64,000 nt of DNA from Myxococcota bacterium (lineage in GTDB: Bacteria; Myxococcota_A; UBA9160; SZUA-336): assembly GCA_965247115.1 (NCBI GenBank), contig CBDFGR010000003.1:672001-736000 (forward strand), written 5' to 3'. The notes under the pieces are model-generated. The model was given only the letters and a program-made list of their open reading frames with translations. It had not been told where the DNA came from and did not search any database. Position 1 is the first letter of the stretch. The number at the start of each line of letters is the position of its first letter. A program made the translations under genes and the position numbers. This document shows, one piece after another, positions 1 through 63,103 of this stretch.

Positions 1-956
1 AGTGTCGACGAGGGTCTCGCGCTCTTCCTCAAGACGCACGCACCAGAGAACTTGTTCAGCACTCGCTGGGAGGCGTTCCTCGCCAAGAAACGGCGCGACG
101 CGCGGCAAGGCCAGATCACGACCCGCCATCTCGGCGAGCTCGAGGGATCGAACGCCGCGGCTACCTCGGGACCCTGCTCGAGCGCTCGATCTACGATCTC
201 GACTACAGTGCGCTCGAGGACTGGCTTGGCTGGCTCCACGATACGAGGCCCGAGCTCTCAGCGAAGACACGCAAATACGCGCTCAGCGCCGTCATGTCAT
301 TCCTGTGCTGGCTCCATCGGCGGCGCGATATCTCGGAGCTGCCCGAGGCGCCGACCATCGTCGTCGGCGAGCACGCGCCCGTGCTGCTTTCGGCTGACGA
401 CCGCGAGAGAATCCTCGCCGCGATCCCCGAGCCGGCTCGCGGTATCTTCCTGGCGCTCGTGCACATGGGACTCAGACCGAGCGAAGCCCGCGTCATGAAC
501 TGGTCGGCCTACCGGGACGGCTACCTCACAGTGGCCCATGCGGCCAAAGATCAGCGGCCCGAGGGGAGGATCGGCGACACGAAGACGCGGAGCGTGCGAC
601 GTCTACCCGTGCATCCCGAGGTGGCCGAGTGGATCGAGAAGCACGTGCGGCGCGAGGATCTGCTCTCCGACCCGCCGCTCTTCCGAAACCCCGAGGGCGC
701 GACTGCATCAAGGCGTTGGAGCCCGTCCGCGATGGGACGCTCGTGGACGCGCGCCCAGATCACGGCTCTCGGACGGATGGTGGCCCCGCTCTACGAAGGC
801 ACCCGGCACAGTTTCGCGACCCTGGCGCTGAACGACGGAGCCGACCAGTACACAGTCGGGAAGTTCCTCGGGCACCGGGACCCGAGGACCACGGAGCGCT
901 ACGCGAAGCTCGCGGACAGCAGTCTCGGGACCGTGTTGCGTCTTCCGAGAGACTGA
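1..956 (+). CDS. Tyrosine recombinase/integrase, 5'-truncated by the window, with an apparent frameshift at ~145
   Basis: Catalytic motifs GLRPSE, DTKT, YEGTRHSFAT, LGH, TTERY. Frame 1 (SVDEGLALFLKTH...HLGELEG) continues in frame 3 as IERRGYLGTLLERSIYDLDYSALEDWLGWL...SAKTRKYALSAVMSF (core-binding domain) if one G is added to GAGGGATC. Confidence 0.9.
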   Translation, partial: CRRGSRALPQDARTRELVQHSLGGVPRQETARRAARPDHDPPSRRARGIERRGYLGTLLERSIYDLDYSALEDWLGWLHDTRPELSAKTRKYALSAVMSFLCWLHRRRDISELPEAPTIVVGEHAPVLLSADDRERILAAIPEPARGIFLALVHMGLRPSEARVMNWSAYRDGYLTVAHAAKDQRPEGRIGDTKTRSVRRLPVHPEVAEWIEKHVRREDLLSDPPLFRNPEGATASRRWSPSAMGRSWTRAQITALGRMVAPLYEGTRHSFATLALNDGADQYTVGKFLGHRDPRTTERYAKLADSSLGTVLRLPRD

Positions 957-6375: not shown

Positions 6376-9300
6376 TCACTTGCGCCGAGGAAATTCCCGT
6401 GAGCCCGGCCCTCTTAGTGTTTCTCTGATCAATGGCCCCGGACGGGCTGGCTTCGTGATGGACAGTATCCTGCCTCCCGGACTCCGAATGAGTTCCTGGC
6501 CGCCTGCCTTACGTTGCGTCAACGCCCCAATCCGATCCTCGCGGGAGATGCCTTCGCCCCCCCGGGGATGTGTGTGTCCGGCGAGGTCTGCCGTTTTCAG
6601 CCGGTTCTCTGGAAACCTGATCTGCGTCTCCGTTCCGATGAAACTGTCATCAAGCTTGCCGTCTTCTAGGAGGAAACCACGCTCACGAAAGTCGCCCGTG
6701 CCTACCGCATCGTTGTGGAGACGGTCAAGAGTCTGGATTCCAAGGCGTTCCACAGAAGTGAGATCTGGAACGAGTCCAGTCTCCCCCCCACCGCCCCCCG
6801 TGCCGTCCGGCGCCGCCGGGGTCATCCCCTCGCCGTCCGCGGCCGTGGCGATTCCTCCACCCCGGTTTCCTAGGCCGAGCCCCGCCAAGAAGTTCACGAG
6901 ATCCGCGAGGAGACCCGCCCGAGCGGCGTTACGGATTCCCGCGGAGGCTGAGAAGCCCGTGAAGCCGCCGAAACAGCTCGTTACCAGGACGACGGCGAAG
7001 CATCCCCCGACGTTCCCCGTCGGATCGACGAGGGATGTCGGAGCGTTCGATACGTAGGCGTACCGGTTGAGCCCCTGGGAATCGAACGACTGGACAAAAG
7101 AGTCGGGCGAGAGGAAGCGTCCCCACCTCGGGTCGAACATTCGCGCCCCGTAGTCGTAGAAGCCCGCAGCGTCATCCTCCGCCTGTCCTGTAAACCGGTG
7201 GGGGAGGTCGAATGTGCCGCTGTAGTTCACGGACATGCCAAAAGGTGTGTAGTCGCGCTCCTCGACCACGATCCCCAGGAGATTCACCGCGCCGCGGACG
7301 GAACCCTGGTGGTCCGTGATGTGGGCTAGGAGCCGCTCGTGGGTCCCTTGAGGCACCGACCCAGCCGCTCGGACGGGGAGGGTGAGGGTCAACAGCCCGA
7401 AGGCGAGTACACCCACGCCAGGTGCGCTGAGCCAGGCCGGTGGGCGCACTCCGGAACCCTGGACAACGATCCCTACAATCCCGAGAAGCGCGAGCCCGAT
7501 CGCCAGTGCGAGGACGATCTGGCCGGCCAGAGGTAGCCAGGGGCGCAGCCAGCCCGGCCACGAAAACGCCTCAAAAGGGTCCGGGAAATAAAGCGAGGCG
7601 ATGCGCTGGCCGCCCACGATCAAGTACTTGATCGAGACATCCTGAGTCGTGTCGTATTCGAAGTCTTCGCCAACGTAGATGACCTCAGTGGCGTTCGTTC
7701 CGGTGATTTGCTGCCGGACTCTCCGGTCAAAGACATCGTAGTAGTTGGTTGAGTCGTTTGTGGTCGTCTTGTGAAGACGGTTCTGGGCGTTCCAGATGAA
7801 CTGCTCCGATCCGTTCCGGGTCGCTGGATTGCCCCCGAGCTCGGGAACCATCGTCTCCGTGCTCGCGTTCTCCACAAACTCCGTGAGGAAGTGAGGCGCG
7901 TTGCTGTCATCGTACTCCCAAGACCGCGTGTAGCTCCCGGTCGAGGTCTGAGAGAGTAGGTTTCCTAGCGGGTCGTAGGAGTAGTTCCAGGTCTCGAGCT
8001 GGGAGCCCCCCTCCCAAGGTCCGACCGCCTGGGTGAGGCGGCTGAGCCCGTCGTACTGGAAGGAGCGACTTTGCCCGTCGATAGTCTGGTTGGCGAGGCG
8101 CCCGAGGCCATCGACCGTATAGTCGAGGGTCATGTCCGTGTCCGCTGTCGGATCAGCCAGGATCTGAGTCAAGCGGGCTGTGCTGGAATCATAGCTGTAG
8201 CTCAGCGTGAGGACCGACGTTCCTGTTTGGTCGTTGCGATCGCCGATCGAGTAGAACGTCGGGCGTCCCGAGGCGTCGTAGATGGCGGTCCTAATAATCG
8301 GGCGGTTGAAGTATCCACTACTCTCCCGGACCTCGGTGAGCCAGAGACTGTCGTAGTTGTGGTCCCAGATCGCGCCGTCCGGGAAGGTTCGCTGGTCGAT
8401 CCGATCGAGGTGGTCGTACGTGAAGGAGCTGGTGAGCGACCCCGCATATCCGGGCGTGGTCTGCGTTTCTTGCGAGAGACGACCCCCGGCGTCGTAGAGG
8501 AACTGGTAGGTCGTGGTTCCAGACGAGAGGGCTGTCACCGCCTCGATCCGCCCGTAGCTTGAGATGAAGGGGTTCGCGCCGTAGGAGAATCCGGCATCTT
8601 CGGAACCACTCCCGAGCGGCACCATGAGGCGCTTGGACACGCGCTGGAGCTCGTCGTACTCGTAGTCCGAGCCCCTCCCCGCCCCATCGCGTTCCGTGAG
8701 AAGAAGACCGGCATCGTCATATGTGTAGGTCCACGATCCCGAATCTGGATCCAAGAGCTCAGTTCGACGCCCGAGCAGGTCGTACGTGATGAAGGTCTTG
8801 TGGTCCTGGACCGAGCAGTTCGGCGCTAGACCCGCGCACCAGCTCGGGTTGTTCGCGATGGGGTCACGAACCTCGACCAGGCGATCGAGTTCGTCATAGA
8901 AGGCGTCGACGACGAGAGGCGTCCCTAGGGAGACGGCGTTCTCGTAGTTGTAGACAGTATTCAGTCGGCGCCGCCCGTCCCTGATGCGGAGCGTGTACGA
9001 ACGCCTATTGCTCGCAGTGATCGGCCCAAAGAAGACCTCTTCCACGACCGCCCAAGGCGCGTACGACCAGGTCCGAATGGTCGTTCCGTCCTCGCTCAGG
9101 ACGCTCGCAATTCGCCCGATCGCATCGTAGCTCGCAACGCGCGCGAGCGGAGAGAGGTTCGTGCTGAAGTGGGGGATCGTCTCGGTGGCGATCCGGCCGC
9201 GGTCATCGAAGGTCCGGGAGATCAAGACCGTCTTCGAGGAGTCGCCGGGCTGCTCCTCGCGGTATGGGCGGCCAAGTCCATCGAGGAAACTCTTCACCGT

Positions 9301-12300
9301 GAGCGTCGTGCTCGCGTCCGCGGTGAGCGTCGCCGTGATCACGTCCTCTGTGCAGATCGAGTATCCCGTGGGGCAGTAATCGATGGTTTCCACACGCCCG
9401 TTCGCTCGCTCGACGCGCGTCAGATGGGCAAGGGTGTCGTAGCCGAACCTGTCCGCCACGTTTCCAGGTCGCGTGACCATGCACGGAAGCCCTAGGCCCG
9501 CAGGAGGAGCCAGGCCCTGAGCGCAATCCGCATCCAGATAGGAGAACTGGTCGCTAACACCGACCGAAGTATCGGATCCACGCGTGATCTGTATTGGGAA
9601 GGTGTGGAAGTCCGCTTCGTACCAGATCTGGACCTGGTGCCCGTTCGGGTCGTCAAGCGTCGGCGGACCCGTGATCAAGAACTCGTTTCCATAGGAGTCG
9701 TACTGCATCGTCGTCGCCACCCAGGCAGGAGGCGAGCTTTCCTTGAGCTTCTCGACCTTTGTAACGTTCCCCTCGCTCACCTGTCCGAGCGGGAGGCCAT
9801 CGTAGTAGCGGCGCTCGTGAGAGACGGTCGTGGTGGCTGCGAGGTCCGTGATCTGAACCTCGGATGGGCTTGCGATCAGGTGTCGGTCGGTCGACGCGGG
9901 GGAGGCATAGGTCAGGACGGTGCGGCGGCCGTCGTCGCCCAGATCCGTCGTGGGATTCAGGGGATCCACCTCCCCGTACTCGAGGATCTCCTGGGGCAAT
10001 TGGTCCTCAGGCGTGGCGCCATACGCGATGGTCGTACGGCTCATCTTGCGGCCCGACTCGTCGCCCTCGACATCTTCGGTCCGAACCTCTGTGAGGAGGC
10101 AGGCATCCCACCGGTCCGGGAGTGCAGTCGGGCCGGAGACGAGCAGGTAGTCGAGCTCCCTCCGTCTGAGGATCTGGCTAGTGAATAGGTCCGTCACCAC
10201 CTCGCGGTCGATTTCGCGCCCGCAGGCCCGATCCAGCGCCGGGTCGATCACATACTCGCGGAGGATCTCGGTCGACGGCTGTCCGGCCTCGTATTGGGTG
10301 CGTGTGACCGTCCCGTAGCCCCGGAACTCCCGTTCGCTGCGGTCATAGCCCGCGTCCGCGAAGCAGTACTCATCGATGATCGAGTTCTCGAGGTCTTGGA
10401 TCTCCATCTGCGAGACGACCGGACGGACGATGGGAAGATCGGGGTTCAGGCTACTGCCACACGTCGCGGAGGGCATCGCGCTCGTGCCGTAGTCGAAGAA
10501 GGTCACCCCGGCGAGGGGGTTCGTCGCGGAATCCAGGAGTCCGGGCTGCGGCCCCAGGCTCAGGTAGATCTCGTCCAGAGCGAGGATCCAATCGACGAGA
10601 CCGTCACTATCCACGTCTTGGAGGGTCGAGTTCCCGTTCGGGCGCTCGTGGTCGATGACGCAGCTCCGCGGATCCGTACCGCCTCCGGACCAGGTCGGCG
10701 TCCAATTGACTCCGGTCGCCTGGAACCCCTCGCCCGTTCCGTACTTCACCGTCCACTGCGGCGGCGACCCTGAGGTGGAGACGTGATCCACTAATCCGTC
10801 TCCGTTGATGTCGATGAGGTGACTCGTCTTGCAGCTCCCATTGGCGAGACTCAGACTCGCGGGCGCGTTCAGGAGGTTCTGCTCCGTCGACGTATCGAAG
10901 CCACCCCCGAAGTTGAACGCCACTCGCCACGACGTGCCGTTGTGGTACACGCGGTCCAGAAGGCCGTCGCTATTGATGTCCTGCAACAGGGCCGTGTCGT
11001 CTCCCGCGCCTGTCGTGAACACGATCCAGGACGCTGCAGGATCGGGCCACGAAAGAGAGGAGAGCCAGCTGCCCTGACCACCCGAGATCCCTCCATTGGG
11101 GACAACCGTCCAAGCAGATCCGCCCGAAGAGTCGATGCGATCGGGCAGACCGTCGCCCGTGAGGTCCAAGAGATCCCGTGTTGTGCGCAGGTCGAGTGAA
11201 ACGCTGTGCTGGTCGACGATTCGCAGGTTGATCGGACTCCCTGGCCACGCGGTCGAGGTGCTGCTCATTCCGGTCGCGGATCCCAGATAGACATCCCACG
11301 GATCGGCTATTGAGCTGACACCATCCGGAAAGCCGTCCCCGTCCATGTCCAGCGTATCCGTCTCGACATACGTGTTCGTGCTGGGACTAAACCAGGCGTC
11401 CAATGTGAGAGTCGCGTCACGATACGCAACGTGCTGCGTGGACCAGGTCTCTGGAGCGTTCAGGTACTCGTTTCCGTCCCCTGGCCACCGTTCCGCCCGA
11501 GAAGGACTATCCGCCGTCTTGAAGACATCCCGCGCACCATCGGAGTCGAGATCCGAGAGCTGCTTTAGTTCGGTAGCGGAGCCCGGGATGAGAATCTCAC
11601 CATAGATGGGACCGTAAATCCCTATGGGCGCAACGACGATGAGATCCATGAAGCCGGGCTCGACCCCGGGGGCGTTCGCGATGTAGTTGCTCGACATGGA
11701 AGAGAAGCCGGGATTGCTTTCGGAGTACGTGAAGCTGTGCGCGGCTTGTTTGCCCGCCCAGTCGCTCGACCCCCGAGTGACACTTACGAGTCGGCTCCGC
11801 CCTGAGGCTGGGGCCTGGTCGTAGGCGAGGTCGTAGTGGGTGGCGTGCTTTGACACGCCGCTCTTCACCACGTACAGATCGATACGTGTGATCCGATGGT
11901 CCAGCTTTTGGCGGAAGCCTGAGGAGTAGCTGATCGGCTGATCTGGGCGAACCGCACCGACGTACCCGGAGGGGTAGATGTTGATCCTCCGATTTTGGGC
12001 TGTGCCATCCCCCCAGAAGACATTGGTCAACCTCGCAACTCCGCCCGTGAACTGATACCAGTAGGTGATGCGGTTCCCATGGGCATCATCGGCCTGCTGG
12101 AGAAGCCACGAGAAGGTCTCGCCGTTCTTGTCGTTGTCGACGCGACTTCCTGCCGACGTACCGTAAACGAAGAGTCGCCCCTGTCGGTCACGGATCTCCC
12201 ACTTATTCGAGGACGGGATGTACTCGATGAGGCGGCCGTCGTCTCGCTGCGTGCGGTAACGGTCCCGACCTCCGGCACTTGAATCGAAGATCAGATCCTG

Positions 12301-12672
12301 GCCATCGAGGACAAAGTCGTGGCGATATTCGAAGGCGCTTCCAAGTGGCTGCGTCAGATCGTATGGAGGTCCGAACTTTCGGTCGCGCTCGATGGTACTG
12401 AGGCCCTCCAACTTCCACCCGAAGCCGAAAGGCCCCGCTGGTCCTTTCGAGCTCTTGCTCTGGTAGACCAGCGCGAGCTTTGGCGTGTGACCGTCGGGGC
12501 CGGGGGGAACAACGAGCGCGATTCGGTACGTACTCGTACCCTGAGACTCGGAGACCCTCCCAACGGCGGAGAGCCCCACCGATGCTGGATCGGACGCGCC
12601 CGTCTGCGCCTGCGGAGACGTGGGTAAGAACGCGAAGAGCGCGAGTACGATGGGGGGGAGGCCGCGCGCCAC
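6376..12672 (-). CDS. Secreted SpvB/TcB-like + FG-GAP + YD/RHS polymorphic toxin with a JAB/JAMM-like C-terminal domain
   Basis: Signal peptide; SpvB-like N-terminus (YRIALVVPPG...PKLALVY...GPFGFGW); DxDGDG repeats; EREFRGYG; YD repeats; RHS core FTGQ..YDYGARMFDPRWGRFLSPD..LNRYAYVSNAPTSLVDPTG; tip HTHPRGGEGISRED. Confidence 0.92.
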   Translation of the reverse strand: MARGLPPIVLALFAFLPTSPQAQTGASDPASVGLSAVGRVSESQGTSTYRIALVVPPGPDGHTPKLALVYQSKSSKGPAGPFGFGWKLEGLSTIERDRKFGPPYDLTQPLGSAFEYRHDFVLDGQDLIFDSSAGGRDRYRTQRDDGRLIEYIPSSNKWEIRDRQGRLFVYGTSAGSRVDNDKNGETFSWLLQQADDAHGNRITYWYQFTGGVARLTNVFWGDGTAQNRRINIYPSGYVGAVRPDQPISYSSGFRQKLDHRITRIDLYVVKSGVSKHATHYDLAYDQAPASGRSRLVSVTRGSSDWAGKQAAHSFTYSESNPGFSSMSSNYIANAPGVEPGFMDLIVVAPIGIYGPIYGEILIPGSATELKQLSDLDSDGARDVFKTADSPSRAERWPGDGNEYLNAPETWSTQHVAYRDATLTLDAWFSPSTNTYVETDTLDMDGDGFPDGVSSIADPWDVYLGSATGMSSTSTAWPGSPINLRIVDQHSVSLDLRTTRDLLDLTGDGLPDRIDSSGGSAWTVVPNGGISGGQGSWLSSLSWPDPAASWIVFTTGAGDDTALLQDINSDGLLDRVYHNGTSWRVAFNFGGGFDTSTEQNLLNAPASLSLANGSCKTSHLIDINGDGLVDHVSTSGSPPQWTVKYGTGEGFQATGVNWTPTWSGGGTDPRSCVIDHERPNGNSTLQDVDSDGLVDWILALDEIYLSLGPQPGLLDSATNPLAGVTFFDYGTSAMPSATCGSSLNPDLPIVRPVVSQMEIQDLENSIIDEYCFADAGYDRSEREFRGYGTVTRTQYEAGQPSTEILREYVIDPALDRACGREIDREVVTDLFTSQILRRRELDYLLVSGPTALPDRWDACLLTEVRTEDVEGDESGRKMSRTTIAYGATPEDQLPQEILEYGEVDPLNPTTDLGDDGRRTVLTYASPASTDRHLIASPSEVQITDLAATTTVSHERRYYDGLPLGQVSEGNVTKVEKLKESSPPAWVATTMQYDSYGNEFLITGPPTLDDPNGHQVQIWYEADFHTFPIQITRGSDTSVGVSDQFSYLDADCAQGLAPPAGLGLPCMVTRPGNVADRFGYDTLAHLTRVERANGRVETIDYCPTGYSICTEDVITATLTADASTTLTVKSFLDGLGRPYREEQPGDSSKTVLISRTFDDRGRIATETIPHFSTNLSPLARVASYDAIGRIASVLSEDGTTIRTWSYAPWAVVEEVFFGPITASNRRSYTLRIRDGRRRLNTVYNYENAVSLGTPLVVDAFYDELDRLVEVRDPIANNPSWCAGLAPNCSVQDHKTFITYDLLGRRTELLDPDSGSWTYTYDDAGLLLTERDGAGRGSDYEYDELQRVSKRLMVPLGSGSEDAGFSYGANPFISSYGRIEAVTALSSGTTTYQFLYDAGGRLSQETQTTPGYAGSLTSSFTYDHLDRIDQRTFPDGAIWDHNYDSLWLTEVRESSGYFNRPIIRTAIYDASGRPTFYSIGDRNDQTGTSVLTLSYSYDSSTARLTQILADPTADTDMTLDYTVDGLGRLANQTIDGQSRSFQYDGLSRLTQAVGPWEGGSQLETWNYSYDPLGNLLSQTSTGSYTRSWEYDDSNAPHFLTEFVENASTETMVPELGGNPATRNGSEQFIWNAQNRLHKTTTNDSTNYYDVFDRRVRQQITGTNATEVIYVGEDFEYDTTQDVSIKYLIVGGQRIASLYFPDPFEAFSWPGWLRPWLPLAGQIVLALAIGLALLGIVGIVVQGSGVRPPAWLSAPGVGVLAFGLLTLTLPVRAAGSVPQGTHERLLAHITDHQGSVRGAVNLLGIVVEERDYTPFGMSVNYSGTFDLPHRFTGQAEDDAAGFYDYGARMFDPRWGRFLSPDSFVQSFDSQGLNRYAYVSNAPTSLVDPTGNVGGCFAVVLVTSCFGGFTGFSASAGIRNAARAGLLADLVNFLAGLGLGNRGGGIATAADGEGMTPAAPDGTGGGGGETGLVPDLTSVERLGIQTLDRLHNDAVGTGDFRERGFLLEDGKLDDSFIGTETQIRFPENRLKTADLAGHTHPRGGEGISREDRIGALTQRKAGGQELIRSPGGRILSITKPARPGPLIRETLRGPGSREFPRRK

Positions 12673-12703
12673 GAGAATCTCCAGTACACGTGTAGTGCCG
12701 GAA

Positions 12704-13075
12704 TCAGAAGCAGTCGCGGAATTCGGTCTTCGTGAGAGCTAGTACCTCGTTGTCGGTGGCCCCGCGTTGGCACGCGGCGATCACCTGCTTGGTGTATGCG
12801 TCGTAGCGGGAACGAATGCACCGAAGCCTGAGTTCCGTGGAACGATCTTTGGCGCGGTCGAGATGCTCGGTGATCTTGCTCCGAGCGGCTGCAACAGCCT
12901 CGGCCTCGGACCGAGTCATCTCAGCTTGTGCGGTCTGCGCTTTGCAGAGCGACCCGGCACGCGCCGGGCTGCTAGCCAGGAGCAGGGAACAAACCAAGCA
13001 GAGACCTAGTAAGAACGGGCGACCTAGTCCCGGGGGTCGTCGCGAGCAGGCAATCCAAGTAGTTGAATGCCGCAT
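12704..13075 (-). CDS. Small secreted cysteine-containing helical protein upstream of the RHS gene
   Basis: Signal peptide ending SPARA, four Cys in the mature part, GGAG RBS upstream; stop lies 31 nt before the RHS start. Confidence 0.6.
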   Translation of the reverse strand: MRHSTTWIACSRRPPGLGRPFLLGLCLVCSLLLASSPARAGSLCKAQTAQAEMTRSEAEAVAAARSKITEHLDRAKDRSTELRLRCIRSRYDAYTKQVIAACQRGATDNEVLALTKTEFRDCF

Positions 13076-21919: not shown

Positions 21920-23333
21920 ATGGCCAGTCCCAAGACCCGGGTCGAGAGCGACACCATGGGCCAGATCGAGGTGCCTGCCGACCGCTACTGGGGCGCGCAG
22001 ACGCAGCGCTCGCTCTCGCACTTCTCGATCGGCGAAGACCGCATGCCGGTCGAGATCGTGCACGCCTTCGGAGTGATCAAGAAGGCAGCGGCCCTGGCCA
22101 ATCGCGAGCTGGGCGTGCTCGACGAGGAGCGCGCCGGCGGGATCACGCAGGCTGCCGATGAGGTGATCGACGGCAAGCTCGACGATCATTTTCCGCTGCG
22201 CGTGTGGCAGACGGGCAGCGGAACCCAGACGAACATGAATGCCAACGTTCGCGAATCGCGGGATCGAGTTGGCCGGGGGAGTGCTCGGGAGCAAGGACCC
22301 CATCCACCCGAACGATCACGTCAATTGCTCACAGTCTTCCAACGACACGTTCCCGACGGCAATGTATATCGGCTCCGCCCGGATTCTTGTCGAGAAGCTG
22401 ATCCCCGCAGTGAACGAGCTGCGGGACGCGCTGGAGCGCAAACAGGAAGAGTTCGGCGACATCGTCAAGACCGGCCGGACCCATCTGCAGGACGCGGTGC
22501 CCCTCACGCTCGGCCAAGAGTTCTCCGGTTTCGTCTCACAGCTCGACGCGGATCTCGGGAGGCTCGACGGCGTACTGCCGGACTTGTACGAGCTGGCCAT
22601 CGGGGGCACCGCCGTGGGCACTGGCCTCAACGCCCCCGCGGGCTTCGCCGAGCGCTGCGCCGACCAGATCGCCGAGCTCACCGGCATGCCTTTCGCGTCG
22701 GCGCCGAACAAGTTCGCGGCGCTGGCGGCCCACGACTCGATCGTGATGGCGTCGGGCGCGCTGCGCGTGCTCGCGTGCTCGCTCATGAAGATCGCCAACG
22801 ACATCCGCTGGGCGGGCTCGGGTCCGCGCTGCGGCCTCGGCGAGCTGAGCCTGCCCGCGAACGAGCCCGGCTCCTCTATCATGCCTGGCAAGGTCAACCC
22901 CACCCAGTGCGAGGCGATGACGATGGTGGCCGTCCAGGTGATGGGCAACGACGCCGCGGTCGGCATCGCCGGCTCCCAGGGCAACTTCGAGCTCAACGTG
23001 TTCAAGCCGGTGATGGTCCACAATCTGATCCACTCTGCGCGAATCCTGGCGGACGCCTGCGTCACCTTCCGGCGCTTTCTGGTCGAGGGTCTGGAGGCGA
23101 ACCGCGACCGGATCGCGGAGGCCGTCGACCGCTCGCTCATGCTCGTCACCGCGCTCACGCCGAAGATCGGTTACGACAAGGCCGCGGAGGTCACACACAA
23201 GGCCCAGGCCGAGGGCATAACGCTCAAGGAGGCGTGTGTGAGCCTGGGCGTGCTGTCGGCCAAAGAGTTTGACGCCGCAGTGCAGCCGGCGAGGATGGCC
23301 TATCCGCATGGGAGAAGAAGGAGGCTAGGGTGA
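21920..23333 (+). CDS. fumC: Class II fumarate hydratase with an apparent frameshift at ~22247
   Basis: [30 protein letters not shown] in one frame; [28 protein letters not shown] in the next; about 5 nt missing from the expected N-E-V-I-A-N-R. Confidence 0.93.
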
Positions 23334-23450
23334 ACCGCTTCCTCGCGCTCCGGCCCGGATGACTTTTCGGTAACGCGTTAGAAGACGCCACCCTCGGTGC
23401 GCATTCTCGGTGAAGAGGCGGTAGGCCGACCGGCTGATACATTCCTTGCG

Positions 23451-23666
23451 ATGCGGACTTCGATCTCGCGGACCTTCGCCGGGGCGCTCCTCGCCGCTTA
23501 TCTCGGCTGCGACCTCGGCGAGTACGCGCGACCCGCGCCGAGCGGCGAGTGCCGAGAGATCGGCGCTCTATGCCAGCTCGAAAGCGGTCCGCTGGGCGTG
23601 TGTGAGAGCCGGCCCTGCCGGCCCGGCGAGACTCCGCTCTGCTTTACGTGCACGCCGCAGCACTGA
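23451..23666 (+). CDS. Small Cys-rich lipoprotein
   Basis: Lipobox YLGC; six further Cys in about 45 aa. Confidence 0.6.
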   Translation: MRTSISRTFAGALLAAYLGCDLGEYARPAPSGECREIGALCQLESGPLGVCESRPCRPGETPLCFTCTPQH

Positions 23667-23689
23667 TGCGCGCAACAGGAAGCCGACGC

Positions 23690-24130
23690 ACCGGGAATGG
23701 TCAGGACCCCGGGTCGGTTCAAGATCGGCTCCCGCTCAGCCTGATCCGGGCGTGGACGGCAACGTACGCGGGATCCGCCAGCGTGACGGCTTACGCGATA
23801 AATTGGCTCTACGGCAACTTCGCCGCGTTGGTCATCCCGGCTCGCTCTCCGGGATCACGGAGAGTGCCAAGCGATAGAGTTCGCGGAGGGACTTGTCAGG
23901 TCTGTGTGCTTCTGACAACCGAGCTCTTGAGACAGGTTCCCTCGCTGTGGGAGTCGGAGTGCACGGTCAGAAACGGCCGCTGACCGAACCTGTTGCACAC
24001 TAGGTTACGACGGCGCCTCGTCGCAGCTGCTTTACTCGCGCCCTCAAGACCCTGTAATATAGAGGAAAATCATCCTATGAGGGGTATCCGGGTCGGCCCG
24101 TCACACCTGCCGTCACCGACCCAACCCGGC
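23690..24130. ncRNA. Candidate structured non-coding RNA (unassigned family)
   Basis: No convincing ORF; many nested complementary pairs, e.g. TCTTGAG 23925-31/CTCAAGA 24043-49 enclosing ACAGGTTC 23932-39/GAACCTGT 23986-93 enclosing GGTCAG/CTGACC. Confidence 0.4.
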
Positions 24131-24138
24131 GTGGAGGG

Positions 24139-25025
24139 TCAGCCGCGGCGGCGGTAGTCCTCCAGCGCCCTGCCCGCCTCGGCCAGCCCTTTTCGCTGGG
24201 CGTGAGCGTAGATGCCAAGGGTCACCGAGGCGCTGGCGTGCCCGAGTTGTTTCTGAGCAACATGGATCGGAGCACCGCTCTGCACCAGGTCGCTGGCCAC
24301 TGTGTGTCGCAGCGCGTGGCTCGGTTTCTTGCCTCGTATCTCGGCCCGATCATAGACGGCCCTGAGCCGACTGTGAACGCGTTTCGTCCACGGCTTCCCC
24401 CGTCGAGTGTCCATCTGGCACACGCGGTCCTTCGGCCCCTTGAACCGGAGTTCGCTGCGGTATTGGTCCAGCCACCGCACGAGCTCCTGCGCGTACACCG
24501 TCCGCAGCGCGGCCTGTGTCTTCGGCTGCCACCATGGCTTAGCCGTGACCGAGATGCACCCCTCCGCGACGTCAACATCCGACCAGGTCAGGTTGAGCAC
24601 TTCGCCCAACCTCATCCCGGTCGCGTGGCAGATCTTCAGCACTACGAGCGCCGGCACATCGAACTGCGCCGCCTCGAACACGAGAGCCACCTGGTCCGGC
24701 GTCAGCGTCTCGTCCTTCCGAGGGGAGGCGGCAGCAAGAGCCGCTTTAGGGGAACCTGCGGGTGGGGGAGCTCGTTCACCCACGCCCAGTTGAGGCACGC
24801 CTTCAGTGACTTCATGTCACGGTTGGCGCTCAAGACCGACGTGTCGTCAGCCCGCTTGTCCCGGAACTTGATCAGATCCTGGCGCGTGATGTATCGCTCG
24901 CGCGCCTCTGGGACCACCTCGTACAGCTTGGCGATCGCTATGCAATAGGACTCGTGAGTCTTCGGTCGCCTCGTGCGGCGCACGTCTTCGAGCCACTCGG
25001 CCGCGATGTCCGCGAACGTCTCCAT
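24139..25025 (-). CDS. Tyrosine recombinase (~295 aa, core-binding + catalytic domains) with an apparent frameshift at ~24722
   Basis: N-part METFADIAAEWLED..SANRDMKSLKACLNWA; C-part TGMRLGE, PKT, SHALRH, LGH, TLGIY; frames join if one C is added to the CCTCCCCT run; GGAGG RBS. Confidence 0.9.
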
Positions 25026-25311
25026 CCCACAACCTCCTCGGCTTGGGACGGGAGGTTGCTTGAACTGCGCACTCCTGAAACGTACGTAACCCTCTGCTGC
25101 GCATCACAATCCAGTGCTTACAGTCCACTGCCGCCCGATTCGCTCGGTCGTCACCCGGCGGGAAGAAATCGAGAAATCGACCACGCCCGCCGGGCTCCGG
25201 CACATCTTGCACGTACAGGGTTAGGCAGGCCGGCGTCTCGACAGGATCTGGTTGACAGAGCGTGTCCCCCGTAGGCGTAATTGCACGAGCTTCGCAGCGA
25301 GTAAGGGACAG

Positions 25312-27591
25312 ATGTCCAAAGCCGCCAAACGAAACCCCGCTCTCGATCTGGTCGCATGCGCATTGCTTCTCGTTGCGGCTCCGAGCTCATGGGCCGACGA
25401 CCCTGAGCTAGAGCAGACGCCGCCGCCACAGGCGGCTGCGGCCGAGCTCACGGCCGCCGCGCTGGTGCCGACGGCCGCGGAGCGAGCCGTGATCGAGGAG
25501 ATCGTCGTCACCTCTCGGAAGCGGGAGGAAAACCTGCTCGAGATCCCGGAGTCGGTAACCGCTTTCTCCGAGGTCCAGATCGACCGGGCCAACATCAGCG
25601 GTCTCTCGGACATCTCATTGCTTGTCCCCAACCTCTATATGGGGAGGCGGACGGACGGGTTTCCCAACGTCTCGATCCGAGGCCTTGGGGCGTTCGGCAA
25701 TACCCAGGGAGTCGGCTTCTACCTGGACGACGTCCAGATCTTCGGAGATGCCTCTTCCCGGTTCGGTGACATCGCGCGAATCGAGGTGCTGAAGGGGCCG
25801 CAGGGCATCCTGTACGGCGGTGCCAATATCGGGGGCGCCATCAAATGGGTCTTGAACAGGCCCGACCCGGCAGAATTTTCGGGCCGCGTCAGGCTATCGG
25901 CCGGTGAAGACGACTACTACGACACAGAACTCGAGCTGAATGTTCCGCTGGGAGAAAGCTGGGCAGCGCGCCTCTTCTACTTCGGCGAGACCGACGATTC
26001 GTACCTGGAGAATCCCAACTCCGCACGCCTCAATGGTGAGCGCAACAACAACGATCGGAACGTAGGCGAGATCCATCGATACGGTGCGCGTGCAAGTATC
26101 GCGGGCGAGCTCACAGAGCGTCTCTCCCTCTATGCCAGTCTGCGCTACAACGAGTCCGATGGTCCCAACAACAACTGGAGCCGGGAGATCAACGGCAATC
26201 TGCGGTACACCGATGAGATCGACACCAGCCGCAATAATTCGCACGACCGGAAAACCTGGGGCTGGAGCGTGGAGCTCAACTATGACTTCGATGCCTTCAT
26301 GCTCACCTCTATTACGTCGAATACGGATACGGATTCGGAGAGACAGACCGACCTTGATCTCACCCAGGAGTATGTCTTTGATGCGTTTCGCGACCACCGG
26401 TTCGACGTGTTTACGCAGGAGCTGCGTCTGACGTCTTCGGGGTCAGGGCCGTTCCAATGGCAGCTTGGAGGGTACTATCAGGAACTCGAGCGGCACGGAC
26501 GTGGCGAATTGATCTTCTTCGGCGGTTTCGGATTGTTGTTCGAGGATCCACCCAGGATTCCCACGCCCGAGGAGGAGAAGCTGGTCTTCTTCACGGATCC
26601 CGGCGCCGGCGAAGGGGACCGCGAGAATGTCGCCGGCTTCGCGAACGGCAGCTATCGCTGGAACGTCCTGGAATTCTCAGCAGGCGTTCGCGTAGACACA
26701 TGGGAGGCCAAGTCGAAGGACCTTGACAGTGGCGTATCCGGCGATCAGAAGGACACGGAGACCCTGTTCCGAGGCTCCGTGTCGTGGTTCTTTGATGACG
26801 ACCGGTCGATGCTGTACGCACTCTATTCCCAGGGCTTTGAACCCGGCGACTTCAACGGGACTAGCCTCGAGGGCGAGCGTGACCTGTTCGGTTACGGGCG
26901 TGAAAAGGCGACGAACCACGAGCTCGGCTACAAGGGCCGCTTGTGGGACGACAGGCTGGTGCTGACCGGAGCCGTCTTCAGGATCGACTACAAGGACCGG
27001 CAGATCGAGCTCCAGGTAGATACGTCAGAGGGACCGGTCGAGGCGATCATCAATGCGGGCGATTCCAGGAACTGGGGATGGGAGGCGGAGCTGCAGGCGC
27101 TGCTCCATCCCGACTGGACCTTCTCCGCGGGATTCGGCTACCTGGATGCCGAATGGAAGAGTGGCACGCGCTCGCCGTTCACGGGTCGCAGTATGTCGGG
27201 ACGAACGCCGCTCAACGCCTCGGACTGGAGCGCCTTCTATGCGCTCGATTGGAACCACGAGTTTGACACCAACTTGAGGGGGTTCGGCCGCCTCCAGGTA
27301 CGGCAAAAGGGGCCCGCCACCACCAACGCGATCTTCTTCGATACCGAGGGCGACGACTTCCCCATCTGGGAGAACGATCGCTTCACGGTCGTTGACCTCA
27401 ATGTGGGTCTCGAATGGCAGAACTGGGAACTCGGCTTGAGGCTCGAGAACGTGTTCGATGAGGAGTACTACATCGACGTCCAGAAGTTCCCCAACTTTGC
27501 CGGGCCGTTGGTCACGCCGCAGAGCGCCATCATCATCGGCACCCTCGAGCAGCCACGCCGCCTCATGGGCTGGGTGCAGTACCGGTTCTAA
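25312..27591 (+). CDS. TonB-dependent outer membrane receptor
   Basis: TonB box IEEIVVTSRKREE, plug RIEVLKGPQGILYG, C-terminal ENVFDEEY...QYRF. Confidence 0.95.
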   Translation: MSKAAKRNPALDLVACALLLVAAPSSWADDPELEQTPPPQAAAAELTAAALVPTAAERAVIEEIVVTSRKREENLLEIPESVTAFSEVQIDRANISGLSDISLLVPNLYMGRRTDGFPNVSIRGLGAFGNTQGVGFYLDDVQIFGDASSRFGDIARIEVLKGPQGILYGGANIGGAIKWVLNRPDPAEFSGRVRLSAGEDDYYDTELELNVPLGESWAARLFYFGETDDSYLENPNSARLNGERNNNDRNVGEIHRYGARASIAGELTERLSLYASLRYNESDGPNNNWSREINGNLRYTDEIDTSRNNSHDRKTWGWSVELNYDFDAFMLTSITSNTDTDSERQTDLDLTQEYVFDAFRDHRFDVFTQELRLTSSGSGPFQWQLGGYYQELERHGRGELIFFGGFGLLFEDPPRIPTPEEEKLVFFTDPGAGEGDRENVAGFANGSYRWNVLEFSAGVRVDTWEAKSKDLDSGVSGDQKDTETLFRGSVSWFFDDDRSMLYALYSQGFEPGDFNGTSLEGERDLFGYGREKATNHELGYKGRLWDDRLVLTGAVFRIDYKDRQIELQVDTSEGPVEAIINAGDSRNWGWEAELQALLHPDWTFSAGFGYLDAEWKSGTRSPFTGRSMSGRTPLNASDWSAFYALDWNHEFDTNLRGFGRLQVRQKGPATTNAIFFDTEGDDFPIWENDRFTVVDLNVGLEWQNWELGLRLENVFDEEYYIDVQKFPNFAGPLVTPQSAIIIGTLEQPRRLMGWVQYRF

Positions 27592-61310: not shown

Positions 61311-62101
61311 GGGCGAGCTACAACGGGGCGGACACCCGGCGTCTTCCAGCGCGAAAGGCCGCTCGGCTGGTACGTGAGGACCACAGCGCGTCGACTTCCC
61401 GTGCTCCCGTTGCTGCGCGAGCCGTGCACGACGTAGCCGTCGAAGAAGATCACGGATCCGGCTGGTGCCTCGATCGGTAGCGGCTCCGGCTCCTCGATCG
61501 TGGAGAGATCCGTGTACAGGCGGCCGAGCACGCCACGATCTTCGAGGACAGGCAGGTTCCCCTGCGTGTGAGAGCCGGGAATCACCCAGAGGCAGCCGTT
61601 GTCTACGCGCGCGTCGTCCAGATAGATCTGCAGGCTCGAGAGTCGATCGAGGTGGTCGCAGCCGAACGCCCAGTACGGTGCGTCCTGATGCCACGGGAAG
61701 GGCGCACCGAGAGGTCGTTTGAAGTTCAGCTTGTCCGTGAAGAGGCTGACCGCATCCGTGCCCAGGATGTCCAGCGCCGGTCCCCACGAGCGGGGATCAT
61801 CAACGAGGGCATCCAGGCGCCGATCGAGGTGCGTAACGGGCTCCATCGAGCGGATCTCCCGCGCCCCCGCGCGCCACTCCCACTTGATGGTCGAGCCGAG
61901 CAGCTCCTGGTACGGCTTGTCGTCGATCCACTCGATCGGCTCGGCTCCGGCTCCTGCTCCCGCAGCGACAACGGCGTCGTGAATGCCCTCGACCGCCTCA
62001 CGCAGGGGGTCGAGCTCATGCTCCGCGAATACCGCGCGACGAAGGAAGAAGCCGTCTGCTCGATAGCTCCGACGCTCAGCGCCTGTTGCCCCCTCGCCCA
62101 A
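61307..62101 (-). CDS. Phytanoyl-CoA dioxygenase (PhyH) family protein
   Basis: WHQD, DNGCLWVIPGSH, VHGS..N..RR. Confidence 0.92.
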   Translation of the reverse strand: MGEGATGAERRSYRADGFFLRRAVFAEHELDPLREAVEGIHDAVVAAGAGAGAEPIEWIDDKPYQELLGSTIKWEWRAGAREIRSMEPVTHLDRRLDALVDDPRSWGPALDILGTDAVSLFTDKLNFKRPLGAPFPWHQDAPYWAFGCDHLDRLSSLQIYLDDARVDNGCLWVIPGSHTQGNLPVLEDRGVLGRLYTDLSTIEEPEPLPIEAPAGSVIFFDGYVVHGSRSNGSTGSRRAVVLTYQPSGLSRWKTPGVRPVVARP

Positions 62102-62161
62102 GCCGCTCTCCTCTCACGATCCAGCTTGCAGGCGCCGCCCCGAGCAGTCAACCTCCTCGCC

Positions 62162-63103
62162 GTGATCATCGTGACGGGCGGGGCGGGCTTCATCGGCAGC
62201 AGCCTGGTGAAGGCACTCAACGACCGGGGACGAACGGACATCCTGGTCGTGGACGAGCTGATGGACGGCCGGAAGTTCCGGAACCTCGTCGACTGCGAGC
62301 TCATCGACCTGGTCGACAAGGACGACTTTCGAGAGCGGCTGCTCTGGGGGGAAGAGATCGGTCACGTCGATGCCGTCTTTCACCAGGGCGCGTGCTCCAA
62401 CACCATGGAGTGGGACGGCCAGTACCTGCTGCGAACAAACTACGAGTACTCGAAGGCACTCCTCGATTTCTGTGAAGTCCGCGGCATACCGCTCATCTAC
62501 GCCTCGTCCGCGGCGGTGTACGGAGCCGGCCCGGAGTTCCGGGAGGACCCTCACTGCGAGTCCCCACTCAACATGTACGCGTACTCCAAGCTCCTGTTCG
62601 ACCAGTACGTGCGGAGGCGCTCGGATCAAAGCCGCTCTCAAGTAGTCGGGCTGCGCTACTTCAACGTCTACGGCGTGCGCGAGCAGGCGAAGGACGAGAT
62701 GGCCAGTGTGGCGTTCAAGCTGAATCGTCAGCTGGGGGAAGGCTCGCGGGTTACTCTGTTCGAAGGCTCGGACGGCTACCCGGACGGTGGCCAGCTCCGG
62801 GACTTCGTCTACGTCGGCGACGTCTGCAACGTGAACCTCTGGCTTCTGGAGCACCCGCAGGTGAACGGCGTCTTCAACGTCGGCTCAGGTCGCGCACAGA
62901 GCTTCAACGAGGTGGCCCGTGCCGTGATCGGCTATCACGGGCGCGGTGAGATCGAGTACGTCCCTATCCCGGCCGAGCTGCGCGATTCCTACCAGAGCTT
63001 TACGCAGGCCGATCTCACGGCGCTGCGAAGGGCCGGATACGAGGCCCCCTTCCTCGCTGTAGAAGAAGGGGTACCTCTCACGCTGAAAGAGCTGAACGCC
63101 TAG
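62162..63103 (+). CDS. hldD: ADP-L-glycero-D-manno-heptose 6-epimerase
   Basis: IIVTGGAGFIGS, FHQGACS, YASSAAVYG, YAYSK, GLRYFNVYG..KDEMASV, YQSFTQAD. Confidence 0.95.
   Translation: MIIVTGGAGFIGSSLVKALNDRGRTDILVVDELMDGRKFRNLVDCELIDLVDKDDFRERLLWGEEIGHVDAVFHQGACSNTMEWDGQYLLRTNYEYSKALLDFCEVRGIPLIYASSAAVYGAGPEFREDPHCESPLNMYAYSKLLFDQYVRRRSDQSRSQVVGLRYFNVYGVREQAKDEMASVAFKLNRQLGEGSRVTLFEGSDGYPDGGQLRDFVYVGDVCNVNLWLLEHPQVNGVFNVGSGRAQSFNEVARAVIGYHGRGEIEYVPIPAELRDSYQSFTQADLTALRRAGYEAPFLAVEEGVPLTLKELNA

Follow-up and report, generated by a model that had tools for sequence, protein, structure and literature searches.

The analysed window is a 64,000-nt stretch of a contig from a Myxococcota bacterium (source genome, G000). 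[quoted passage not shown] A TonB-dependent receptor gene block abuts the orphan copy and lies outside the integrase unit. The features are listed in Table 1.

Table 1. Features at the integrase locus, in window positions
Feature	Position	Strand	Remarks
Flagged tract, non-coding single-copy spacer	23690..24138		flanked by a small ORF and the integrase stop codon
Lone tract piece with a relative	24002..24096	+	95 nt, 83% identical to G002:C21 (L016 4285-4380)
Tyrosine integrase gene, Xer-like, two domains	24139..25025	-	split into two ORFs in the window
ORF of the integrase PF00589 catalytic domain	24139-24798	-
ORF of the integrase N-terminal SAM-like domain	24702-25025	-
Frameshift site	24722..24725	-	from alignment: run of four G (four C on the coding strand), five in relatives
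Spacer of 91 nt between integrase start codon and rnpB-like block	25026..25116		part of the unit common to G002
Orphan rnpB 3'-end block, likely att site (attR-like)	25117..25230	+	model R1, 108.6 bits, E 1e-30
Terminal 13 nt of rnpB in the orphan copy	25117..25129	+	invariant in 12/12 aligned copies; identical to the genome's genuine rnpB
Trailer hairpin 1	25130..25152	+	10 pairs; sequence variable, covarying
Trailer hairpin 2	25153..25198	+	conserved outer stem CCCGGCGGG/CCCGCCGGG around a small variable hairpin
TonB-dependent receptor gene block	25231..27591	+	abuts the att copy, outside the integrase unit

The integrase gene

The integrase comprises 297 aa, with a SAM-like N-terminal domain and a PF00589 catalytic domain (96.7 bits, cut-off 27.1, E 1.7e-27, profile positions 2-169 of 172). 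This build bears out the earlier observation that no arm-binding N-domain is present. Tyrosine recombinases share the catalytic set R...K...H-x-x-R...H/W...Y. In the alignment, the integrase motifs ATGMRLGE, HALRHT, LGHAS and IYAH fall opposite similar motifs of XerA (5hxy), whose residues there are presumably the catalytic ones. XerA was the top sequence match (E 6e-17), and XerA 5hxy and XerD 1a0p were among the Xer relatives. The scores against the NCBIfam models for XerC (86.4), XerD (84.1) and XerA (84.2) were all below the equivalog cut-offs of 335.15, 329.6 and 220, respectively, and the integron-integrase models gave 57.8, far below their cut-off of 265. The window enzyme is a PF00589, Xer-like protein and not an IS110-type DEDD recombinase.

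The sequence-only reading had taken the gene for an intact, lone recombinase gene. This was corrected by a one-base deletion, which splits the window copy into its two ORFs and leaves no uninterrupted frame. An extra G behind position 24721 was present in the contigs of all four non-source runs (X5, X6, X10 and X8, from four studies), and the contig of X1, the probable source sample, was the same as the window sequence, including the frameshift. The congener G002 carries an intact 297-aa allele, and G014, from another genus, carries a 299-aa homologue with 68% identity. Judged by its reading frame, the window copy is probably inactive.

The tract at the 3' side of the integrase gene

The tract had been described as densely nested structure without a credible ORF and proposed as a partner or substrate of the recombinase. 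The lack of an ORF was confirmed by the loss of codon-position GC periodicity, which collapses between 23340 and 24140 (max-min at most 0.17, against 0.3-0.58 in the flanking genes). The listed stems also exist: all eight pairs given with coordinates, as well as CGACG/CGTCG at 24008-24023, were found in the sequence as described. The structure did not exceed what chance would give. Shuffled versions of the whole tract had a mean folding energy of -178.9 kcal/mol; the tract itself reached -179.8 (z -0.16), which 47 of 100 shuffles matched or bettered. It was no better than these controls, and the same was true of the minus strand (z -0.75; 22 of 100). The 'outer' domain at 23925-24049 gave z +0.16 (113 of 200 shuffles as good), and the domain at 23794-23885, cut exactly at its own stem ends, gave z -2.1 (8 of 200). 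Nine 7-nt inverted repeats within 130 nt were counted in the tract, which is ordinary for the window: its other 449-nt tiles had a mean of 6.5 (sd 4.1), and 44 of 142 equalled or exceeded the tract.

Rfam scans detected no known structured RNA, with no match at the gathering score across the whole window and no meaningful match at E<=10 across 23300-25400. The source genome contains one copy of the tract, which is kept beside the integrase in near-identical strains (contigs of about 99% identity). It is missing in both related loci of other species: G002 has an integrase fragment where the tract would be, and G014 has an HNH-domain gene. Two interior substitutions, at 23942 and 24062, were common to all four other runs; each stands alone, and neither is accompanied by a change at a listed stem partner.

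The relative of the lone tract piece in G002 sits in an unrelated place, not beside an integrase. By eye, a TTTACT...TGTAATAT box was seen in this piece; it was set aside as a promoter, being visible by eye only and not listed by a consensus promoter scan. The RNA libraries X18-X20 gave four short contigs from the stretch (24270-24446, 24769-24978, 23342-23410 and 23577-23727), for which DNA carry-over is possible.

The tract is a plain, non-conserved spacer with no conserved structure. Neither the conservation beside homologues nor the covariation of a recombinase-associated guide or partner RNA was found in it.

The rnpB trailer and its orphan copy

The source genome has one rnpB (C3:643014-643433) and exactly two copies of the trailer element. 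These lie on the + strand, at C3:643414 and, 53,703 nt further along, at C3:697117. RF00010 matched at full length at the C3:643414 copy only. In the window, no RNase P body was found with RF00010 at the gathering score, and the orphan copy consists of the terminal 13 nt and the trailer only. The two copies are 80% identical over 89 nt, with longest identical blocks of 14 and 17 nt (hand count). G002 has the same arrangement, with rnpB at C20:90593-91012 and an integrase-adjacent copy about 25 kb away (C20:116328-116436), which is followed by a degenerate third copy. The copy-B-like region of G002 (L003 2590-2760) was not found in G000.

The trailer is an ordinary companion of rnpB in the class. 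With model R1, it was present in 119 of 151 class genomes, following rnpB. The alignment of the ~90-nt element included 12 copies, and Rfam was run on 11 of these loci. RF00010 (197-258 bits) ended about 20 nt into the element in all nine integrase-less loci, near which this integrase was not found, and no RNase P body was detected at the integrase-adjacent loci scanned (G002 and G014). Compensatory changes were observed in 20 of 24 trailer pairs, with changes on both sides in 10 of 10 pairs of helix 1 and in 10 of 14 pairs of helices 2 and 3. The trailer is covered by no Rfam model.

More than one R1 match occurred in only four of the 151 class genomes (G000, G002, G025 and G349), and the remaining class genomes with the element had one copy with readable context each. 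The extra matches of G025 and G349 are so close to contig starts (45 and 30 nt) that their upstream sequence is unreadable, and they were not counted as orphan copies. In both genomes rnpB is on another contig than the extra match; that of G349 is about 300 nt from a contig end, as might result if the assembly had divided a single locus. The G014 assembly lacks its own rnpB.

Similarity of native rnpB loci to the window begins only at 25117, and native and integrase-adjacent copies become similar exactly at CTTACAG. On the 5' side of this motif, native copies have conserved rnpB sequence, whereas integrase-adjacent copies have the sequence upstream of the integrase. The stretch 24142-25230 is 98.4% identical to G002. 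The right edge, 25230/25231, is a synteny break, where homology to the integrase unit of G002 stops and homology to the TonB-receptor locus of G002 begins. The likely receptor start is about 110 nt downstream of the orphan copy, on the same strand. In the contigs of other runs, different sequences were joined directly behind 25206, 25221 and 25230, as expected at a recombination hot spot, and one related strain has a second copy of 25183-25221, a 39-nt repeat, 7.3 kb further downstream. The hairpins of the orphan copy are nearly intact, with 4 to 6 non-standard pairs in the R1 alignment. The spacer between the copy and the start codon probably contains the integrase promoter region and forms the element-side arm.

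Integrase homologues (E<=1e-35 or better) were found in three of 32 genomes of the order (G000, G002 and G014), and the same threshold in a phylum sample gave two of 401 genomes and no new carrier. In each of the three, one homologue adjoins an orphan element copy, which lies about 90-140 nt upstream of the integrase start codon in divergent orientation, in three species and two genera. The flanks of these copies differ: a TonB receptor, a TPR protein and a thioesterase-like gene. Further paralogues, on G000:C2 and G002:C32 (two loci), have no element copy, and one truncated paralogue adjoins tRNA-Lys. A search of genome contigs recovered the G002 loci only, and a search of metagenome contigs recovered one 29% match and three loci 99.8% identical to G014, which are therefore not independent. 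Viral contigs contained no integrase homologue, and the typed att pattern was also unmatched in them. As the added searches brought no independent carrier, the co-occurrence rests on three species. The trailer variant next to the integrase is 93-96% alike in two genera, and this near-identity is more easily explained by a copy carried on the element than by an attR half derived from the host.

Phage-like and other mobile genes lie between rnpB and the integrase. In G000 this interval includes two further integrases (at C3:654 kb and window 3-953), an HNH gene, small and large terminase subunits and a Rhs/Tc-like giant protein, as well as an ordinary-looking tRNA-Ser, TenA and a fumC pseudogene. 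The G002 interval includes a PrimPol-AAA_25 gene, an integrase, an integrase fragment and transposases, and a different integrase lies 4 kb downstream of its rnpB. The similarity of the two genomes ends about 76 nt beyond the rnpB trailer, and the region is heavily rearranged between them; the interval is therefore not one clean island, and a single-event history was abandoned. In G007 and G012 an epimerase orthologue follows rnpB at 4-9 kb, together with an M20 peptidase orthologue in G007. The G000 counterparts of these two genes, at window 61481-63100 and immediately past the window end, are separated from rnpB by about 91-93 kb. The relatives showed no case of rnpB joined to the 25231 sequence, and the assembled contigs, over the stretch compared, showed no empty site, excised circle or joint across the interval. 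Two features of an island in a stable-RNA gene are present: a direct repeat has one copy with the whole gene and one orphan copy, and the integrase adjoins one repeat at 91 nt.

Interpretation and known systems

From these comparisons, with a probability of roughly 70%, the orphan copy is an attR-like scar, namely the integrase-proximal end of a stacked and rearranged set of mobile insertions at the rnpB 3' end. A circular element would carry an rnpB-like attP beside int, and its Xer-like integrase would recombine this attP with the rnpB end and swap in a new 3' end. Since the 3' end is replaced, rnpB would stay whole. Subsequent insertions and rearrangements would then stack and scramble the region. 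Integration at the rnpB end by this particular enzyme is what the sequences suggest. Against this explanation, the integrase is at the far end from rnpB; island integrases usually adjoin their target gene. The integrase 4 kb from rnpB in G002 could have made the rnpB-proximal junction, and the paralogues of the window integrase lack an rnpB-like copy at all three of their loci. Also counting against it are the lack of an observed empty site or circle, the 80% identity of the two G000 copies, the ordinary-looking genes and rearrangement of the interval, the near-identical trailer variant in two genera, and the missing rnpB of the G014 assembly.

The other readings were weighed against the same evidence. 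The proposal that 23690-24138 yields a structured RNA, or folds as ssDNA, and acts like a bridge RNA or an attC site as partner or substrate of the recombinase is already largely refuted and keeps hardly any probability. Its stems are real, it is non-coding and kept in near-identical strains (~99%), and one sub-domain, cut at its stem ends, reaches z -2.1. These points are outweighed by whole-tract z values of -0.16 and -0.75 and of +0.16 for the largest nested domain, by an ordinary inverted-repeat density (44 of 142 tiles as high), and by the absence of the tract beside the 98%-identical G002 and the 68%-identical G014 integrases. The changes at 23942 and 24062 are also unpaired at their listed partners, Rfam gave no match, and the enzyme is a tyrosine recombinase rather than an IS110-type DEDD enzyme.

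Two further readings concern the orphan copy itself. The copy and the integrase might have become neighbours through rearrangement only, with the copy being an old duplication or part of another integrase's element (such as the integrase 4 kb from the G002 rnpB, or those at C3:654 kb and window 3-953) and the integrase having a different target. The heavy rearrangement between congeners, the several other integrases in the interval, the paralogues without an rnpB-like copy and the truncated paralogue beside tRNA-Lys would agree with this. It is nevertheless unlikely, given that the copy and integrase are adjacent in three species, two genera and three flanking contexts, and that outside G000, G002 and G014 no extra copy with readable upstream sequence was seen among the 151 class genomes. 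It is very improbable that the orphan copy has been retained because it functions in itself, as a transcribed leader or regulator of the TonB receptor or a regulator of integrase expression. The two hairpins have been preserved almost whole (R1 score of 108.6 bits, with 4 to 6 non-standard pairs), and the copy is on the receptor strand, ~110 nt upstream of the likely start; but unrelated genes follow it in G002 and G014, the G002 receptor orthologue has no copy upstream, and the synteny break at 25230/25231 separates copy and receptor block.

The sequence-only reading is partly supported in this sense: the tract failed as a partner by two of the refuting conditions named with that reading (folding no better than shuffled controls, and no co-occurrence with the integrase in the two related loci), and the proposal of a host ncRNA as the integration site was right in kind and applies to another sequence, the rnpB-end copy at 25117-25230. 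This copy sits 5' of the integrase, still within the coordinates flagged earlier. Likewise, no tRNA adjoins the integrase, as had been claimed, and an att-like copy of the rnpB 3' end is nonetheless present 91 nt upstream of the start codon.

These results remove a false lead, as the locus has no recombinase-guiding RNA. Myxococcota would be a phylum in which the RNase P RNA gene is an integrase landing site in place of a tRNA gene, and rnpB-inserted elements would escape island finders restricted to tRNA and tmRNA genes. The strongly covarying trailer is a small separate lead for the maturation or termination of RNase P RNA in the class. More speculatively, and on balance doubtfully, the ~75-nt two-hairpin trailer may be an undescribed 3' extension or processing element, with a clade of arm-less Xer-like integrases specialised on its DNA and using its inverted repeats as core binding sites. 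If true, mobile DNA can stack behind an essential ribozyme gene without harm.

IS110 bridge RNAs and the folding of integron attC sites are cases of recombinases with a structure-forming partner or substrate. The likeness here is only that a recombinase adjoins structure-forming sequence, in that the att copy encodes two covarying hairpins. Unlike in IS110, these hairpins are the host's rnpB trailer (119 of 151 class genomes), nearly always without this integrase. The integrase shares with Xer recombinases the two-domain build of ~300 aa without an arm-binding domain. It differs from them in its scores (84-96 bits, with equivalog cut-offs of 220-335) and in its mobile, variable contexts with paralogues and fragments, with no conserved chromosomal position.

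The locus is most likely a known kind of stable-RNA-gene insertion, with an rnpB target that no paper found has named. Within the retrieved passages of the literature, no report of rnpB or the RNase P RNA gene as a target of an integrase, island or prophage, or as attB, was found, and rnpB appeared there in phylogeny, annotation or qPCR uses only. The TIGER/Islander resource places 33.8% of islands in tRNA or tmRNA genes (PMC12424338). The present locus resembles such islands in having a tyrosine integrase beside a directly repeated stable-RNA gene end (3'), a target gene that is whole, and mobile genes, mixed with ordinary-looking ones, between the repeats. It is unlike them in that the target is rnpB, the repeat takes in ~100 nt of conserved structured trailer beyond the gene, the integrase is at the end far from the target, and the interval is a scrambled stack. 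For phage phiEf11, attB is reported inside ffs, the 4.5S RNA gene, with identical 27-nt attP/attB cores and the prophage mapped into ffs in the host chromosome (PMC12540744). The present case concerns another RNA gene and phylum and is known from its scar alone, and it shares with phiEf11 the targeting of a non-tRNA stable-RNA gene and an att core near the integrase gene.

Folding and conservation of the tract on the 3' side of the integrase

The tract at 23690–24138 had been proposed, from the sequence alone, to be a structured RNA or ssDNA associated with the recombinase. All eight stems with specified coordinates and the CGACG/CGTCG pair were found in the sequence, and the lack of an ORF across these ~450 nt was borne out by flat codon-phase GC (spread among the three phases at most 0.17 over 23340–24140, vs. 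0.3–0.58 in fumC, the integrase and the TonB-receptor gene). The minimum free energy of the tract was −179.8 kcal/mol, compared to −178.9 ± 5.7 in dinucleotide shuffles, 47 of 100 of which folded equally well (z −0.16), and the z value of the minus strand was −0.75. The large nested domain (23925–24049) was equalled by 113 of 200 shuffles (z +0.16), and the domain at 23794–23885, when excised exactly at its closing stem, by 8 of 200 (z −2.1). The tract contained nine 7-nt inverted repeats at most 130 nt apart, compared to 6.5 ± 4.1 in the remaining window tiles, and 44 of 142 tiles matched or exceeded it. The Rfam search gave no match at gathering score anywhere in the window and only chance-level matches at E ≤ 10 in 23300–25400. 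Because folding z, inverted-repeat density and the Rfam search were all ordinary, the structure of the tract is that expected by chance for sequence of 63–66% G+C.

In both loci compared, those of a same-genus relative (G002) and of a relative in a second genus (G014), the tract was not beside the integrase homologue. The G002 match spanned only 24142–25230, beginning three bases past the integrase stop codon; a fragment of another integrase lay 3' of the gene in G002, and an HNH-domain gene in G014. The tract was single-copy in its own genome, and its sole relative was a 95-nt piece (24002–24096) with 83% identity to an unrelated place in G002. These comparisons argue that the tract is not tied to the recombinase. 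The proposal was thus refuted on grounds that the sequence-only reading had itself named, namely folding equal to shuffles and no co-occurrence with homologues.

By eye, an A+T-rich box was seen within 24002–24096, which a consensus promoter scan does not list. A small Cys-rich ORF (23397–23666, plus strand) showed weak codon periodicity, by eye a lipoprotein-type signal at its start (…LAAYLGC), and no Pfam match.

The rnpB-end copy and the integrase

A DNA search of 40 relatives matched window positions ~25116–25210 to many genomes at 75–93% identity. Twelve aligned copies shared an invariant CTTACAGTCCACT, a variable hairpin, and then ACCCGGCGGGAAGAAG, a small hairpin and CCACGCCCGCCGGGCTCC. 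RNAalifold predicted 24 pairs, with compensatory changes in 12, and G-U cells outnumbered A-C cells by 12 to 2, so the structure points to the plus strand. At nine of nine integrase-less loci, a full-length RNase P RNA (RF00010, 197–258 bits) ended ~20 nt into this element, and the Rfam scan found no RNase P body at the integrase-adjacent loci of G002 and G014. The conserved ribozyme end ..ACAGAACCCGG stood directly upstream of native copies and was replaced by unrelated sequence at integrase-adjacent ones. Since the RNase P body is present at native loci and missing at integrase loci, 25117–25230 is an orphan copy made up of the trailer and, ahead of it, the last 13 nt of rnpB. The suggestion that a host ncRNA served as the integration site was right in kind; the sequence concerned lies on the opposite side of the integrase, not in the flagged tract.

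A covariance model of the element (R1) matched 119 of 151 sampled class genomes, nearly always once. In 31 copies aligned by fitting to this model, which somewhat favours structure, 93.8% of cells paired vs. 32–52% with partners slid; both partners changed in 20 of 24 pairs, and none of 500 shuffles reached the covariation score. The trailer is a genuine structure, conserved in the rnpB transcript or around its terminator, and not an integrase accessory. No Rfam model covers the two hairpins. They could extend the 3' end, direct processing or, with no U-run, serve as an unusual terminator; they are a small side lead. In another genome (G020:C104, L006 414–504), a c-di-GMP-I riboswitch (40.7 bits) was observed ~600 nt upstream of rnpB.

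The window genome (G000) carried a single rnpB and exactly two element copies, 53,703 nt apart. rnpB was not found in the G014 assembly (89% complete). Besides G000 and G002, two R1 matches occurred only in G025 and G349, where the extra match lay at most 45 nt from a contig start and the preceding ribozyme body is unreadable.

Coordinates of features at the rnpB and integrase loci
Feature	Position	Strand	Remark
rnpB, G000	C3:643014-643433		RF00010 full length, 231.8 bits
Element copies, G000	C3:643414; C3:697117 (window 25117)	+
Two-hairpin trailer	window 25130-25198; native e.g. L010 3928-4001 (C3:643427-643500)		directly behind RNase P RNA
Integrase	L075:10896-12026		G000 interval
HNH, small and large terminase subunits			G000 interval
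Another integrase	window 3-953		G000 interval
TPR-VWA protein			G000 interval
Rhs/Tc-like protein, 2120 aa	window 6379-12738	-	G000 interval; SpvB, TcdB_toxin_midN, RHS-repeat matches; polymorphic toxin build
tRNA-Ser, TenA			G000 interval
fumC	window 21920-23333		G000 interval; 5-nt deletion near 22246 vs. 96%-identical intact G002 gene
Integrase catalytic ORF	window 24139-24798	-	219 aa; PF00589, E 1.7e-27
Integrase N-terminal ORF	window 24702-25025	-	107 aa; weak matches to SAM-like N-domains
rnpB, G002	C20:90593-91012
Integrase-adjacent copy, G002	C20:116328-116436
Degenerate third copy, G002	L003 2615-2713 (C20:116479-116577)		26.3 bits; 42 nt behind the integrase-adjacent copy; opens with near-palindrome GTGGACTTCTAGTCCAC

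The gene described as a compact lone tyrosine recombinase is of that family and, as claimed, without an arm-binding domain, but it is split into two ORFs rather than intact. The G002 copy (98.4% identical) was one open frame of 297 aa, and the G014 homologue had 299 aa (68% identical). Compared to G002, the frameshift was one base in a C run of the coding strand (G 24722–24725 on the plus strand). The extra G was present in contigs of all four other sequencing runs, from four studies (X5, X6, X10, X8), which matched the window at ~99% identity over the tract, the integrase and the att copy; only X1, probably the sample of origin, equalled the window. The break is therefore either confined to this strain or an artefact of assembly. 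The protein was Xer-like (XerA 5hxy, E 6e-17) and scored far below all Xer and integron-integrase model cut-offs. Searches at E ≤ 1e-35 or better turned up homologues in 3 of the order's 32 genomes, and in 2 of 401 genomes sampled across the phylum. In all three carrier genomes one homologue adjoined an orphan element copy; three paralogous or truncated loci had no adjoining rnpB-like copy. One paralogue (G000:C2:2114964-2117229; L032, L036; 71–73% identical) was split by ~1.4 kb between query residues 211 and 209, with no rnpB-like copy nearby. The C-terminal part of a related integrase, present as a fragment (G002:C32, L028 2639–3208; 88% over residues 223–291), had a tRNA-Lys(CTT) gene 290 nt away.

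Probable mobile DNA behind rnpB

The rnpB-end copy beside the integrase is read as an att site, and the locus as the scar, at its integrase-proximal end, of mobile DNA inserted at rnpB, with a probability of about 0.7. An element carrying int beside an rnpB-like attP would have recombined with the rnpB end and supplied a new 3' end with its trailer in exchange, which would keep the ribozyme gene whole; the displaced or duplicated rnpB end, left beside int, would mark the distal junction. A manual count on the alignment of the two G000 copies gave two identical blocks, one of 14 nt (GCTTACAGTCCACT) and one of 17 nt (CCGCCGGGCTCCGGCAC). The trailer variant beside int was 93–96% alike in two genera, which suggests that it travels with the element.

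Next to rnpB, the G000 interval held metabolic-looking genes, followed by a mixture of others (table). With its deletion, fumC is a pseudogene unless the missing bases reflect an assembly error. A phage-like block between two integrase genes (C3:654295-672953; L075, L076, window 3–953) contained DUF3102, HNH and both terminase subunits, with no portal or capsid by Pfam at E ≤ 1e-5. At the start of the G002 interval stood a PrimPol-AAA_25 gene together with an integrase; transposases were present in it as well. The segment just downstream of the G002 rnpB (C20:92695-95944; L023 2196–5445), a PrimPol, PriCT_2 and AAA_25 gene with a 226-aa integrase gene, has the look of a small integrative element that is of a different type but sits at the same target.

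G000 and G002 shared 93% identity across rnpB, its trailer and the next 76 nt, and were unrelated beyond. An epimerase orthologue lay 4–9 kb behind rnpB in G007 and G012, as did an M20 peptidase orthologue in G007; in G000 both were 91–93 kb from rnpB (window 61481–63100 and just past the window end). Contigs of other runs joined different sequences directly behind 25206, 25221 and 25230. In a 9.3-kb X6 contig (record 20; ~99%-identical strain), 25183–25221 (39 nt at the 3' margin of the att copy, spanning the 17-nt block) recurred 7.3 kb downstream; these direct repeats bracketed the TonB-receptor block, and the second was missing in G000. One clean island does not fit this gene mix, divergence, displacement and set of alternative joints, all of which fit repeated insertion of mobile DNA with later shuffling.

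Comparison with known integration targets

In a literature search of article text, rnpB was not named as an att target by any paper found. The introduction of PMC12540744 gives tRNA/tmRNA and csRNA as the non-coding RNA gene targets, with rnpB unmentioned there, and the targets tallied in the available text of the TIGER/Islander announcement (PMC12424338) are tRNA/tmRNA, protein-coding and intergenic ones only. Among published cases outside tRNA genes, the closest one found was the phiEf11 attB in ffs (PMC12540744). By function, the rnpB locus shows the same pattern as tRNA/tmRNA islands; it follows the known pattern of mobile DNA in stable-RNA gene ends and is of modest interest.
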